The position numbers and the translations under genes are program-made. Positions 27,236 to 32,477 of a stretch of DNA of 63,544 nucleotides are shown piece after piece. Origin of the DNA: Ionaspis alba (taxonomy: Eukaryota). The stretch's first letter is position 1, and the number at the start of each line of letters is the position of its first letter. The notes beneath the pieces are model-generated. The model ran no database searches. It saw only the letters and a program-made list of their open reading frames with translations, and was not told where the DNA came from. Location of the stretch: NCBI GenBank assembly GCA_964255285.1, contig CAXUUL010000021.1:1-63544 (forward strand). The letters are read 5' to 3'.

Positions 27236-28659
27236 TTCCAAGCTGATGGTCAATTGTCTCTGCTCAATGCATGATTCGACCAAGGACATGTCAGTCCTAT
27301 TTTGCCTGTGCTTTGTTTGCGATATACCCCTCTCGGCTCTATATTTATCTCTAATCAATAGACATTGAGACATTTTGTTGTTGCACCATCTACTCATTAA
27401 GTCTCCATATGTTCTTGGTATCTTGCAGTTGGTAGTGAAAATATTATGTGGTACATTGGTGTACAACAGGACAGTCCCTTTCCCAACGTATGATGGCTCG
27501 AAAGAGCGGTCTGCCAGGAGATTCTCGCAAGGGCAAGTGGAATGATGCAAGACATCGGTGCTTCTAATCCTTGGGGAGACGCGGATGCTTCTCAAAGGCC
27601 TGAGCCTCCCCGATATTCTGAATAGCCTACTCGAACTTTCCAGCAAGCCCTCGATATGGGTCTCAATTGGTTTGACTTACAGGTGGCGCCGATTGGGCTC
27701 CTCACCGTACAGTCCCATACATCACCCAGATTTACACACCAAAATCCGGTGGCTCTTACTAGCATCAAGTTTCTCAAATGGATCGGTTGTCTATCATAAA
27801 ACTATGTTCATTGCAATATTGTTTTCTGCTCCTCAGTCACTGATACAATCTTGCATCCTGCAAAGGCCTAACCTCCTCGCTGCAAGAAAATGCATGCCCA
27901 ATCCTGTCATCCTCTCTACTCACCTCCTCATACATAAGCGGCAACACTGCAATATCACGGTCGTTCTCCTCCGGCTTCGGGTGACACGCCGTAGCAGTTG
28001 CTGAGCTACAACTCGACACGATTAAAATACCAACTCTATATCTGCGAGAGCCGACGCCGAAGAGCACGAGGATGATAAAGCCCCTGACAATGAGCATGAA
28101 GATAATAGCAACGACTGACAATGGCATGCCTTGATAGCAAGGCTTTTGTCATGCCCGCCGTTAGAGTCGTAGACTGCGATTTGCACAAGGACGATTCATT
28201 GCGAAACGAACCATTGCAACCTTTAAGAATTGCATGCTTGCACCTGTGTCCACATGCTGCAAAAAGATGCATCAATTTGACTCATTGCTTGACATTGGCT
28301 GGGAGTAACGTCAGTGTAAATTGCGGTCCTTGGGATTTGTCCGCCATCTATATGCATGTGGCAACTCGTCTATCCTGCTCATATAATGCATAGAAGGCTT
28401 CTTCTGCAGACCTACTGTCACGCAATATATCAAGATGGAATGAAACGGTGGAATGATCACCCTTCGAGGCCATTTGTCGCACCAAAATCATCTCGTATCT
28501 GCAATGGTTGAAATCTCTATTCTAGATAGTCCCCACCCATTGCAGTATTTTGAGACTATGATCGGAGGTTCTGCTGCCGAACTCCCGATGGAAACCCTGC
28601 AATAATTTCTCTCAAGATGGACGCACGCGGTAGGTATCCATTTCCTTTACCACAGCAGC

Positions 28660-31600
28660 ATGCGACGGCGAACCATCTTGGTACATATGGCATCTTGTGA
28701 GCAGCCTGGAAGGAAGCTCTCACTGACAGTGCACAGACAGCCCGTACACAAGACCTTTGCATCTTTTGCACATTGCGCCTCCAACCACTTGCCGAACGCC
28801 CCCGTGGCCGACCATATGCACAACGGCGATTACTCAATTCGTCTGCTCCTTCGAGAAGGCCAACGCAAGTCACTGCTGTTCTCGGACGAGAGGAAAGCGT
28901 CTACAATCCTTCAGATCTACAACAATTAAGCCGAGAAAATGGTCACTCCAACTCAGCGCAACCGAAGGGGAGGACTAGCTACACAACCTCGCCAACCCAT
29001 GATCGGACGCGCATCAAACCCATTAATGAAAGACGCAAGGTCATTAGAGATCTTAGAACCATAGAAGCCACGATGATGGGATCTCCGCTGTCCCAAGCCA
29101 TGTTCAAATCTCCGGCTCAGAATTCGAGAAATAATGAGAAATATCGGGGACCTCATCAAGCCAAGGACAGGAACTTGATAGGGATCTCTCTCAAGGAACA
29201 GGCGGTCGATATTAAGAACAATGCACCACCGTCCTCACGCGACGAAATCTTAAAGCATCACATAGAAGATCTACGTGGACAACACCTGCCAACTTACCGC
29301 GTTTGCTCTCCGGAGGAAATAGCCCGATCAGCAGAACAAAGAAAGAAGACCATAGGGCCTGATCGCTGGGTTTGTGAAACTTGTGCCAGGAAATGTTCTG
29401 TGCTCGACGATGCTTGTATTAGATGTTGGAACCCCCGTGACAAGTCTGAGGAGGGGATTCAAAAAGCTAAAGCGATGAAGGCGAAGCAGCTAGCCTTTCT
29501 TAAAAAAGGACTCAGCCCAGGGCATTGGATTTGTACTCAATGTTTGTATGTACATGCTTTTGCCGAACGCTCTTGGTGCCATCGATGCAACACTTTTCGA
29601 AGCAATGATACACTTCAGAGTAGCGACAGCCAACAAGATGGCATGGGTAGCGTCCTTGACGCTCGAATTGCAGCTGCCGTAGCAGACCAGAGGCAAATGG
29701 ACACTCTGGCTACCAATGCTCAATCGTGGGCTAGTAAAGGCAATTGGTCTTGCATAGAGTGCGGCCATCAAAATAGCAGGCAGGATTGGGTCTGCCGGGA
29801 ATGTCAGACCTCTCGAGAAGCCGTTCCGCATCAGAACACCGTTGCGCCCAAGACAAGCCATACTCAGGAGGTCAATTCTGACCAGTACTGGAGGCATCTC
29901 AAGCGTAAAGGGAGATCAAATGGTCCTCCAGACAAGGGAACTTCATCTAACGAGGCGTCTGAAGTGGTCTCTGAGCTCGACGCCAATGGACTATTCAGTC
30001 GAAGGGAGGAAGAGCAACAAGCGCGATTCCGCAAAGCAGCAGAGGGAAATTTCGTTGGATTTGATACTGACCCAGAATTACTTCCTAACATTAGAAGAAC
30101 CTTTGCCGAGCCATCAGACTCATTGACCGGGCCAATGACCTCTGCTCCCACATCAAAAAAGGAGAACATGATCATCCGGCATTATCCCACGGAAGGGAAA
30201 GACCCACCACTGGAACACTCGGCTTACTACTGGGCGCCCGCACAGGAAAGAGGGGACGACTCAGATTTCAAGAGGAACCTAGTAAGAAACGTTACGATCG
30301 GTGTAGGCGGAGTGGAACAAAGCGACGCTGAAACTGTGATGGAGCGGGACTCGGGTGTGGCAAGAGGAAGAGCAAGGTCAGGTTTTCCAGAGCAGGAAAA
30401 TGTCGCCAGGAGTTACAAACCAGCCTCGTCGGCTCAAGACAGAGATCGTGTGTACGCGAGACAGCGCTCTCATGCTGCTCTGGATGACTTTGATGATTAT
30501 GAAGTTGATGATGCACCATCAAGCTTTGAGCGCAAACGGCAACGAAAGAAAAATAAGATTGCCCAGAAGGCTGCAGCAGCCCCAACGCCCATCATACTTC
30601 CCGAATTTATCAGTATCGGTAACTTGGCTACTGCTCTGAAAGTCAGGGTCGAGGATTTCGTAAGGAAAATGAAGGTGCTTGGGTTTAGCGAAACAAGCAA
30701 TGATCATATTCTCGACGCTGAGACTGCAGGCCTGATTGTTACAGAATTCAATTTTGAGCCGATGCTCGATCAGGAAGACGGCGCAGATCTCGTTGCTTTG
30801 CCTCCCACTGAAGACAAATCTCTTCTGCTATCTCGCCCGCCAGTTATCACTATAATGGGACACGTCGACCACGGCAAAACTACATTGCTAGACTGGTTGC
30901 GGAAATCCTCTGTCGCAGCCTCCGAGCATGGCGGTATCACTCAACATATTGGAGCCTTTACGGTTCCTATGCCTTCTGGAAGAGTCATCACGTTCCTCGA
31001 TACTCCCGGTCACGCAGCTTTCCTAAGTATGCGTCAACGAGGAGCCAATGTTACGGATATCGTGATACTTGTCGTTGCGGCAGACGATAGCGTGAAACCG
31101 CAAACCATAGAAGCCATCAAGCACGCTCAAGCAGCCAAAGTCCCCATGATCGTCGCTATCAATAAGATCGACAAAGAAGACTCCAACATCGAGCGCGTCA
31201 AGCAAGATCTCTCGCGCCACGGTGTCGAAATCGAGGACTTTGGCGGGGAAACCCAAGTCGTTTGCGTCAGCGGAAAAACAGGTCAAGGCATGGAAGAGCT
31301 CGAAGATGCCGCTGTAGCCCTCGCAGACGTCCTTGACATGCGGGCCGAGACAGACGGCCAAGTCGAAGGCTGGGTCTTGGAAGCCACGACGCGAAAAGCC
31401 GGCCGTGTAGCAACCGTACTCATTCGTCGCGGAACCATTGCACCTGGCGCCGTTGTCGTAGCCGGCAAAACCTGGGCGCGTGTCCGGGCTCTCCGCAATG
31501 AAGCAGGTACCTCCATTTCCTCTGCCGGACCCGGAACACCAGTCGAGATCGACGGCTGGCGCGAACAGCCTGAAGCCGGTGACGAGGTCCTCCAAGCACC

Positions 31601-32477
31601 GAATGAGCGCCGTGCACGTGAGGTCGTCGAGTACCGGCTTTCCCGTAGTGACAAGTCAAAGATGGCGGAAGATGTCGTCGCTGTTAACGAGGCTCGTCGC
31701 GCTGAACAGGAGAAGCGTGAAAGGGAAGCTCGGTTGGGAGACGAAGGCGAGGCGAGAGCCACTCGGGACACCGCAACAGGCATGAAAGAGATCCCTTTCA
31801 TTATTCGTGCGGATGTCTCGGGTTCCGTCGAAGCTGTCCTCAATTCTGTCTCTTCTCTCGGGAACTCCGAAGTGCGTCCCAGCATCCTCCGCACAGCTGT
31901 CGGACCTGTAACATCTTCGGATATCGAGCATGCGGCTGTTGCCAAGGGTCATATAATCTCTTTCAATACGTCCACCAGTGCTGATGTGCGACGCCTCGCC
32001 GAGAGCAGTGGCGTGACGATTCTGGAACAGAATATCATTTACAGGTTGATTGATGACGTTAAGAAGAAATTGGAGGAGGTGCTGCCGTCGCAGGTGACGC
32101 AGAGGGTCGTGGGAGAAGCGGAGATCGCGCAGGTGTTTGACATCAATGTCAAGAAGAGAGTTATGGTGCCGATTGCGGGATGTAGGGTAAGGAATGGGGT
32201 CATTTCTAGAGGCACGAAGGTCAGGGTGCTCAGGAATAAGGCTGTTGTTTTTGAAGGTATGTTCTACTTCGTCCTCTTCTCCTTTGGGGTTTTATCGGAT
32301 GGGCCTTGTTAATTCGTGGTTACAGGCGCCCTTTCATCCCTCAAAAGTCAGAAGAAAGATGTCACGGAGATGCGTAAGGGCACGGAGTGTGGTCTTAGCT
32401 TTGAGGACTTCACGGCCTTCCGGATCGGTGATCTTGTGCAATGCTATGAAGAGAAGAGTGAGCGTCGGACTCTTTGA
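28660..32477 (+). CDS. IFM1: Mitochondrial translation initiation factor IF2 with long N-terminal extension; exons 28660-28680, 28737-32256, 32326-32477
   Basis: G-domain motifs RPPVITIMGHVDHGKTTLLD, GGITQHIGAF, DTPGHAAF and NKID; C-terminal KKDVTEMRKGTECG. The spliced start MRRRTILTARTQDLCIFCTLR is presequence-like. Confidence 0.95.

Follow-up and report, generated by a model that had tools for sequence, protein, structure and literature searches.

The window analysed here is a stretch of 63,544 nucleotides from Ionaspis alba (contig CAXUUL010000021.1, forward strand). It contains a gene for translation initiation factor IF2 of the mitochondrial type (IF2mt), whose N-terminal part encodes three putative zinc fingers of the RanBP2 type. 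All three are located inside one plus-strand open reading frame (ORF; 29073..32312, 1079 aa), in the middle of a 3.5-kb exon, with about 340 codons between them and the IF2_N and G domains. Because this ORF also encodes the IF2 core domains, the fingers precede the G domain in the same frame; zero stop codons interrupt the ~400 codons from the first finger to the core. The original prediction, made from the letters alone, placed three fingers of the pattern W-x-C-x2-C-x10/11-C-x2-C in frame inside the IF2 gene, and all three strings are present letter for letter. Fingers and core domains are listed below, with residues numbered as in the ORF.

29361-29438, plus strand: finger 1 (F1), DRWVCETCARKCSVLDDACIRCWNPR, ORF residues 97-122, W-x-C-x2-C-x3-C-x6-C-x2-C
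29520-29600, plus strand: finger 2 (F2), GHWICTQCLYVHAFAERSWCHRCNTFR, ORF residues 150-176, 11-residue spacer
29739-29816, plus strand: finger 3 (F3), GNWSCIECGHQNSRQDWVCRECQTSR, ORF residues 223-248, full RanBP2 consensus G-x-W-x-C-x2-C-x3-N-x6-C-x2-C-x3-R
30600-30758, plus strand: IF2_N domain, ORF residues 510-562, Pfam 40.9 bits
30846-31319, plus strand: GTP_EFTU domain, ORF residues 592-749, Pfam 125.8 bits
31362-31592, plus strand: EF-G_D2 domain, ORF residues 764-840, Pfam 73.5 bits
31770-32063, plus strand: IF-2 domain, ORF residues 900-997, Pfam 104.5 bits

Each of the four core domains scores above its Pfam gathering score, and their order (IF2_N, G domain, domain II, IF-2 or C1; 30600..32063 in total) is that of the canonical core in bacterial-type and mitochondrial IF2. 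Core identity is 80-82% to proteins P0002 and P0003 and to that of Xylographa trunciseda, and 76-79% to other Xylographa proteins; relatives bear the UniRef name "Translation initiation factor IF-2, mitochondrial". Judged by these similarities, the window gene is a nuclear gene for the mitochondrial IF2 of a lichen-type ascomycete, its closest named relatives being Xylographa and Trapelia (Lecanoromycetes).

The two cysteine pairs are separated by 10 residues in F1 and F3 and by 11 in F2. When the whole window was translated in six frames, the strict expression W.C..C.{10,11}C..C matched three times, always at F1-F3; the mean number of matches was 0.0 (maximum 0) in 100 mononucleotide shuffles and 0.01 (maximum 1) in 100 triplet-block shuffles. 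An antisense ORF of 135 aa (29490-29897, minus strand) overlaps F2 and F3. We take it to be a chance ORF opposite a conserved coding exon.

To which class the fingers belong was judged from profile scores, residue pattern and predicted fold. The RanBP2 assignment of the original prediction, for which a Pfam scan had been proposed, held in so far as each finger has PF00641 (Zn_ribbon_RanBP) as its best Pfam family; the curated cut-off is reached by F3 only. Against this gathering cut-off of 27 bits, 23.9 bits (E 2.5e-5) were obtained for the whole ORF, exactly 27.0 bits (E 2.7e-6) for F3 alone, 18.0 bits (E 0.0018) for F2 alone and 13.8 bits (E 0.034) for F1 alone, the weakest of the three. The finger stretch of P0092 scores 54.9 bits over 3 stretches. 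The RanBP2 consensus is R/K-x-G-D-W-x-C-x(2,4)-C-x3-N-x6-C-x2-C-x3-R/K according to PMC7154859. All three window fingers have the RanBP2 cysteine spacing C-x(2,4)-C ... C-x2-C and a tryptophan two residues before the first cysteine. The position of the family asparagine is occupied by Asn in F3 and by Cys in F1 (both followed by a x6 spacer), and by His in F2 (x7).

A structure was predicted with AlphaFold2 for ORF residues 85-260 (176-residue model, 25-row alignment), with mean predicted local distance difference test score (pLDDT) of 71.7. Values are ~90-94 over model residues 41-90, which comprise a helix and F2 (F2 itself ~91-94), and ~89-91 over F3. The zinc-ribbon fold, two beta-hairpin knuckles, is formed in the predicted model by F2 and F3 only. 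The helix is the following element:

29448..29507, plus strand: Lys/Ala-rich helix EEGIQKAKAMKAKQLAFLKK between F1 and F2, model residues 42-61, pLDDT at least 90, net charge +4

Its KAK..KAK pattern is kept in P0002 and P0003. No other element of the module is clearly basic, and the helix could itself contact nucleic acid.

Foldseek search of PDB with the 176-residue model returned 0 matches at E <=0.001, which is not surprising for domains of ~26 residues. Locally, it matched almost exclusively RanBP2-type or NZF fingers, with root-mean-square deviation (rmsd) of 0.4-0.7 A over 25-28 residues and TMt of 0.87-0.91. They include Nup153 ZnF2, ZnF3 and ZnF4 (0.5-0.6 A over 26 residues, TMt 0.88-0.91), RNA-bound ZRANB2 ZnF2 (3G9Y; 0.6 A over 28 residues, TMt 0.90), TRABID NZF1 (0.4-0.7 A) and HOIP NZF1. 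VIA-align superposed F3 (model residues 135-166) on TAB2 NZF and others with Z of 3.2-3.4 and rmsd of 1.3-1.8 A, and F2 (58-95) on RanBP2, Nup153, RBM5 and ZRANB2 fingers with Z of 2.5-3.1. The fold argument drawn from these comparisons lies in the make-up of the match list and the small rmsd, not in significance, and the predictor was trained on such structures. Sequence search of PDB with the finger module matched Nup153 only (E 0.38-0.57). Assignment to the RanBP2 type is clear for F3, while it depends on fold and context for F2 and on pattern and conservation only for F1.

Conservation of the fingers was followed first in the closest relatives of the N-terminal region. With ORF residues 60-420 as query, only 3 proteins among 6556 candidates were found at E <=0.001, namely the window's own protein, P0002 and P0003 (hereafter the trio). 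Local phmmer test against 207 collected proteins confirmed that such a single-sequence N-terminal search is insensitive, and the whole protein was used for the search of cluster representatives described below. P0002 and P0003 are each 39% identical to the window protein over the N-terminal region. Identities with the window protein are distributed as follows (P0002, then P0003):

F1: 14/26, 16/26
F1-F2 linker: 15/27, 13/27
F2: 14/27, 14/27
F2-F3 linker: 8/46, 12/46
F3: 22/26, 22/26
N-terminal region downstream of the fingers: 82/257, 82/257

F3 is thus the best-conserved 26-residue segment of the N-terminal 505 aa (~32% elsewhere), and its conservation includes surface positions dispensable for zinc binding. 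Loss of cysteines in related species, which the original prediction had named as evidence against itself, was not seen: all 12 finger cysteines are invariant in the window protein, P0002 and P0003. By every sequence criterion used, the fingers are real and exonic.

Occurrence of fingers in other IF2mt proteins was determined by a search with the core, which gave the 120 nearest proteins; motifs upstream of the G domain were counted by regular expression, the first cysteine pair being C-x2-4-C in the strict and C-x1-4-C in the relaxed version. The named organisms among these 120 are all lichen-forming Lecanoromycetes (Xylographa, Trapelia, Circinaria, Stereocaulon, Lepraria, Lasallia, Lecanora, Letharia, Usnea), except the lowest-ranked ones, Xylona and Pycnora. 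At least one finger is present in 78/120 proteins by the strict and in 88/120 by the relaxed pattern; strictly counted, 42 proteins have none, 39 one, 34 two and 5 three. Proteins with a G domain beginning no earlier than residue 450 are less likely to be truncated calls; among them, fingers occur in 76/102 (strict) and 86/102 (relaxed). Precomputed PF00641 annotation is found on 23 of the 120. Finger and IF2 core share a single ORF in dozens of independent assemblies as well as in NCBI gene models (Letharia columbiana, Lepraria neglecta, Stereocaulon virgatum, Lecanora helva).

By the strict pattern Icmadophila and Trapelia have 0 fingers, and Trapelia has one C-x-C variant by the relaxed one. 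Since the strict pattern misses C-x-C fingers, the counts depend on the pattern (78 versus 88 of 120). W-x-C-x-C fingers, which lie outside the stated C-x(2,4)-C consensus, were observed in P0005, P0009, P0010, P0017, P0208, P0209, P0215, P0315 and P0322, Xylographa and Trapelia among them.

Repeating the core search around Xylona heveae brought in 87 new proteins, mostly from named Leotiomycetes and further from Geoglossum-type fungi, Sarea, Candelina, Thelocarpon, Chaenotheca, Sclerophora, Piccolia, Trizodia and Cryomyces. Here fingers were detected in 3/87 proteins (strict) and 5/87 (relaxed), PF00641 in 1/87; in this set no named Leotiomycete and no member of another named class has a strict finger. 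When the whole protein was searched exhaustively against 1.84 billion cluster representatives, 5470 matches reached E <=1e-30; among the best 150 of these, 20 have fingers by the strict and 25 by the relaxed pattern.

A FastTree core tree (unrooted, with local supports) was built from 183 rows: representatives, 35 named proteins and the trio. Fingers are present in 26/45 rows of the clade that contains all named Lecanoromycetes (local support 97), in 9/17 rows of a second ascomycete clade (local support 99) and in 0/121 remaining rows. Many rows are intron-blind ORF calls, so some of the finger zeros are false. Cysteine at the family asparagine position (C-x2-C-x3-C-x6-C-x2-C) was observed in window F1 and in the second clade (P0231, P0236, P0237; three such fingers in P0231), and may represent either convergence or an old finger subtype.

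In several deposited gene models IF2mt is fused to unrelated domains: to a PF00656 caspase in two Xylographa and in Circinaria (P0004, P0006, P0014), and to an rRNA aminocarboxypropyltransferase in Glutinoglossum (P0130). These are probably merged neighbouring genes of automatic annotation and not real architectures.

The insertion site was examined in an alignment of N-terminal regions of 24 proteins. Lecanoromycete fingers all lie between a LTPEE-like motif and W[KR]H[LV]RRR. In the window, two landmarks follow the fingers:

29889..29909, plus strand: WRHLKRK, just 3' of the insertion site, aligning with W[KR]H[LV]RRR of Lecanoromycetes and Xylona; similar motifs occur in fingerless classes
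30045..30065, plus strand: GNFVGFD, second conserved island of the N-terminal extension, aligning with G.FVGF

Behind them, ERKRQRKK...PTPIILPEF marks the entry to IF2_N. Fingerless Xylona, Pycnora, Mollisia and Botrytis retain the landmarks of the extension. The long extension is thus common to Pezizomycotina in general, and the fingers were inserted into it later. Window F2 corresponds in the alignment to the first finger of other lichen fungi and F3 to the second; F1 is matched in P0002 and P0003 and in none of the other Lecanoromycete proteins aligned. The survey of finger presence and number in ascomycete IF2mt that had been proposed in the original prediction therefore yields a lineage-specific trait, 0-3 fingers per protein at the same insertion site. 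As judged from alignment and tree, the finger module is lineage-specific, with rapid gain, loss and divergence.

The gene model was built on sequence and homology, both termini being placed by alignment to annotated relatives. The first ATG of the ORF (29073) is not the gene start: the frame is open upstream to 28701 and encodes ...TQDLCIFCTLRLQPL...AQRRLLNSSAPSRRP.... Annotated IF2mt N-termini read M..(about 12 aa)..[DN][LV]C[IAV]FC..R...QRRF..S (Xylographa, Trapelia, Letharia, Lepraria, Xylona, Mollisia, Botrytis), and the window frame upstream of 29073 agrees with them. Since this upstream frame is open and encodes an N-terminal motif kept in relatives, the fingers should lie ~120 residues deeper in the protein than ORF numbering indicates. 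Predicted elements of the gene are these:

28617..32477, plus strand: inferred mitochondrial-type IF2 gene, with ATG at 28617, short 5' intron, 3.5-kb main exon, 69-nt 3' intron and TGA at 32475-32477
28630..28729, plus strand: putative 5' intron with ambiguous boundaries, two models predicted from sequence, each frame-preserving
28630-28701, plus strand: 5' intron model A, 72 nt, better donor (GTAGGT)
28634-28729, plus strand: 5' intron model B, 96 nt, donor GTATCC, branch-like ctcactgac just before AG
28752..28781, plus strand: N-terminal motif DLCIFCTLRL (in translation), also present at about residue 12-20 of the IF2mt proteins annotated in Xylographa, Trapelia, Letharia, Xylona, Mollisia and Botrytis
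32257..32325, plus strand: 3' intron, 69 nt, GTATGT...TTACAG

The predicted protein has ~1231-1239 aa, depending on the choice of 5' intron model. Model B would leave 13 aa from Met to DLCIFC, near the ~12-13 aa of annotated relatives. Removal of the 3' intron restores the conserved C-terminus, ...FEG joined to ALSSLKSQKKDVTEMRKG...ERRTL and stop, when compared with P0073 and P0094. The DLCIFC motif is followed by an Arg/Ser-rich stretch, QRRLLNSSAPSRRP, that is presequence-like in appearance. A Cys-x-[FL]-Cys motif ~12-20 residues from the start of IF2mt was observed in several Pezizomycotina classes (P0005, P0010, P0017, P0046, P0073, P0114, P0120, P0128, P0191, P0315, P0322, P0338). It sits in the expected presequence region, and a conserved CxxC pair is unusual within a targeting peptide.

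One contig set does not differ from the window. A second run yielded short contig pieces that span most of the stretch, fingers included, and are near-identical: over 2.2 kb they differ by 2 substitutions and a single 9-nt gap, and they therefore offer no codon-level divergence from the window. The gap, the sole indel in these 2.2 kb, corresponds to 9 bases at 28518, upstream of the inferred start codon, which the second run's contig lacks.

The original prediction further supposed that the fingers may form an mRNA/rRNA-recognition module, as a possible route to start-site selection. From 67 proteins we collected 97 fingers of canonical spacing, whose logo reads G-D-W-x-C-P-S-C-G-x-x-N-[FY]-R-R-R-x-x-C-x-x-C-Q-T-P-R. 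Asn is found at the consensus position in 91/97, and residues between the cysteines are very diverse. One finger of P0094 (ADWVCPSCTTLNFRRREVC...) matches the RBM10 finger with E 3.8e-5 (common DW.C..C...NF.RRE.C) and also matches fingers of ZRANB2, TAF15, RBM5, FUS and Nup153.

The signature common to RNA-binding fingers of the RBM10/ZRANB2 type is an Asn followed by a base-stacking aromatic residue, with a pair of Arg two to three positions on. Ubiquitin-binding NZF fingers have T-F/Y directly after the second cysteine, and Ran-binding fingers of Nup153 and RanBP2 have L/M/V-V/A-x-N there. Neither of the latter two was detected: T-F occurs in 0/97 fingers, window F1 and F3 included (F2 reads L-Y), and L-V-x-N in 0/97. 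At the site of the RNA signature, F1 has Cys followed by S-V-L-D, F2 has His and the 7-residue spacer, and F3 has N-S-R-Q-D. The RNA-recognition claim thus finds only partial support: fingers of some relatives resemble those of ZRANB2 and RBM10, but window fingers are devoid of the contact residues and nearly uncharged.

We consider it somewhat better than an even chance, with a rough probability of 0.55, that the fingers are an accessory docking module on a flexible arm, which would tether IF2mt to a partner at the mitoribosomal small subunit. In its favour are the single open exon with its 12 conserved cysteines, the RanBP2-type scores and predicted fold, the lineage distribution and the shared insertion site. 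For RNA as ligand at the family level speak the logo of the 97 fingers, the RBM10 match of P0094, the binding of single-stranded RNA with GGU by ZRANB2-type fingers through side-chain contacts and a stacking Trp (PMC6384913), and the use of this domain by plant organelle OZ proteins (PMC7154859). Other observations weigh against this reading. The combination of Asn, aromatic and Arg-Arg is present in 0/3 window fingers, whose net charges are +1 (F1), +2 (F2) and 0 (F3), and among the relatives' fingers it is complete in 7/97, partial in 22/97 and absent in 68/97. ZRANB1-B and T0B2.5 fingers are reported to have bound no RNA (PMC6384913). RanBP2 domains comprise RNA-binding members, the plant organellar OZ family included, as well as protein-binding ones, and protein contacts are a frequent function of the domain, according to PMC7154859. 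Since some RanBP2 fingers bind no RNA, the fold alone is no predictor of RNA binding. F1 is below Pfam significance, poorly modelled (pLDDT ~56-65) and has no structural match, and values of Foldseek (E >=0.3) and VIA-align (Z <=3.4) are not significant alone for so small a domain. The gene model is predicted from sequence and homology, and a fingerless IF2mt paralogue may exist in the same genome. Finally, finger number varies from 0 to 3 per protein with at least 17 presence/absence changes on the 183-row tree, which argues for a dispensable accessory.

That variability leads to the explanation that the zinc ribbons accrete in a near-neutral manner in a tolerant tail, where they are kept as folded units without specific ligand and drift in and out. 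The high turnover in both the nearest 120 proteins and the tree would suit it, as would the difference in finger number between named Lecanoromycetes (none in Icmadophila and Trapelia by the strict pattern), the diversity of inter-cysteine residues and the poor conservation of the extension around the fingers. Near-neutral drift does not agree with F3 being the top-conserved part of the N-terminal 505 aa (22/26 versus ~32%), surface positions included, nor with retention of 12/12 cysteines across the trio and fingers at the same site in 78-88 of the nearest 120 proteins; we regard it as improbable. The conservation of F3 can be read differently: residues on its surface (GHQN.RQDWV.RE.Q.SR) hardly vary within the trio, as expected of a specific partner interface. 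The fingers might then be a protein-protein module that docks the IF2mt arm on a mitoribosomal protein, translational activator, assembly factor or import factor with no RNA contact. The RanBP2 fold binds protein in many families, and protein-interaction members are named in PMC7154859; complexes of NZF with ubiquitin and of Nup153/RanBP2 with Ran fill the structural match lists. The nearly uncharged window fingers without RNA-contact signature point in the same direction. On the other side, both ligand signatures of such fingers are absent from the 97 collected, and the family-level consensus leans to the RNA-binding class. Neither ubiquitin nor Ran is known to be a matrix protein. A purely protein-binding module is therefore a tentative explanation, which we hold to be possible and rather unlikely.

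The finger-bearing protein itself could be an artefact, if the fingers belonged to a separate upstream gene or an intron, or if the assembly were chimeric. The 5' end of the gene model is indeed inferred from sequence. However, the reading frame from F1 to the IF2 core is free of stops over ~400 codons, dozens of assemblies, independent of each other, and NCBI gene models have the same single-ORF layout, conserved motifs flank the fingers on both sides in the same frame, and near-identical contigs of the second run cover most of the stretch including the fingers. This explanation is close to refuted.

The window protein, as IF2mt of other Pezizomycotina, has an N-terminal extension of ~500-600 residues before the bacterial-type core, poorly conserved outside a few islands. 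In the Lecanoromycete lineage, RanBP2-type C4 zinc ribbons were inserted between the LTPEE-like and WKHLRRR motifs. Later duplication, loss and divergence led to 0-3 fingers per species, three of them in the window protein. Most relatives have one or two fingers, to which F2 and F3 correspond by position, and F1 is an extra copy present in the trio only. Under the docking reading, the fingers and the basic F1-F2 helix would most likely serve as small docking knobs, stabilised by zinc and borne on a flexible arm, which hold IF2mt to a partner at or close to the small subunit of the mitoribosome. RNA, either mRNA leader or rRNA segment, would be the favoured ligand at the family level. Since GGU-reading contact residues are absent in the window protein, any RNA contact there would be non-canonical. 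The analysis shows the motifs with their reading frame, conservation, positional homology, predicted fold and phylogenetic distribution; we infer zinc binding, mitochondrial location of the mature fingers, their docking role and their ligand.

A bolder version can be formulated, which we think very unlikely: IF2mt of lichen-forming ascomycetes and of the second clade would carry in its N-terminal arm a fast-evolving RNA-reading finger array that reads short motifs of mitochondrial mRNA leaders or of a lineage-specific rRNA segment and helps to place the start codon without Shine-Dalgarno pairing. If this were true, the finger repertoire would co-evolve with the mitochondrial genome, and the divergent fingers of the window, including Cys-for-Asn in F1, which the second clade shares, would represent new RNA specificities rather than decay.

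Start-codon finding without Shine-Dalgarno pairing in fungal mitochondria is understood mainly via yeast mRNA-specific activators. If a general initiation factor possessed ligand-binding domains itself, this picture would be extended by a further layer. Even in a modest reading, autonomous zinc fingers have been grafted on a universally conserved translation GTPase, with fast turnover and in 0-3 copies, in two clades; their variation offers a natural variant series for studying the role of long N-terminal extensions of organellar IF2. At the same time, the sequence data speak against plain transfer of "RanBP2 finger = RNA binding" to the window protein. As to the "undescribed system" seen here by the original prediction, full-text literature search, with most subscription journals outside its reach, found no paper on zinc fingers in IF2mt, but the fingers are common in lichen-forming fungi and already machine-annotated by Pfam (Letharia columbiana IF-2). 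What we describe is a known domain on a known factor, whose combination and distribution appear undescribed.

Among known systems, fingers of ZRANB2, RBM10 and FUS share with the window fingers the C4 spacing and Trp, in F3 also Asn and the terminal Arg, and the predicted fold superposes on 3G9Y, 2LK0 and 2K1P. They differ in that the window fingers are without aromatic and Arg-Arg, that Asn is replaced by Cys in F1 and His in F2, and that the second spacer of F2 is 7 instead of 6. Their hosts are nuclear splicing or transcription factors, whereas the window host is a mitochondrial translation GTPase. Fingers of the NZF type (Npl4/TAB2/HOIP/TRABID) and of Nup153/RanBP2 provide the best superpositions (F3 with TAB2 NZF, Z 3.2-3.4; F2 with RanBP2/Nup153, Z 2.5-3.1). 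Unlike them, no window finger and 0/97 of the collected ones carry the respective ligand motifs, and their ligands are cytosolic or nuclear.

Plant OZ1 and OZ2, encoded in the nucleus and targeted to organelles, bear 2-4 RanBP2 fingers in tandem and take part in RNA editing and intron splicing (PMC7154859, PMC8034646, PMC4359148). RanBP2 fingers on a nuclear-encoded organelle factor are thus common to both. OZ proteins, however, stand alone in editing or splicing complexes, whereas the window fingers are fused to a core translation factor, and there is no sign of common descent. C-to-U editing is not known from fungal mitochondria.

The other relevant comparison is with additions to mitochondrial initiation factors themselves. 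Mammalian MTIF2 has domains III-VI homologous to E. coli IF2 and a 37-residue insertion replacing IF1, and no finger is mentioned in the accessible part of its description (PMC8280776). Such factors gain segments with extra contacts to the small subunit, as exemplified by the MTIF2 insertion and the terminal extensions of mtIF3 (PMC8280776, PMC6321546). In these cases as in the window, a bacterial-type initiation factor is combined with mitochondrion-specific segments. The MTIF2 and mtIF3 additions are short peptides, in or at the ends of conserved domains, with roles defined by cryo-EM (electron cryomicroscopy). The addition in the window, known from sequence, in contrast consists of predicted autonomous zinc-ribbon domains in a very long N-terminal extension, peculiar to some ascomycete lineages only.

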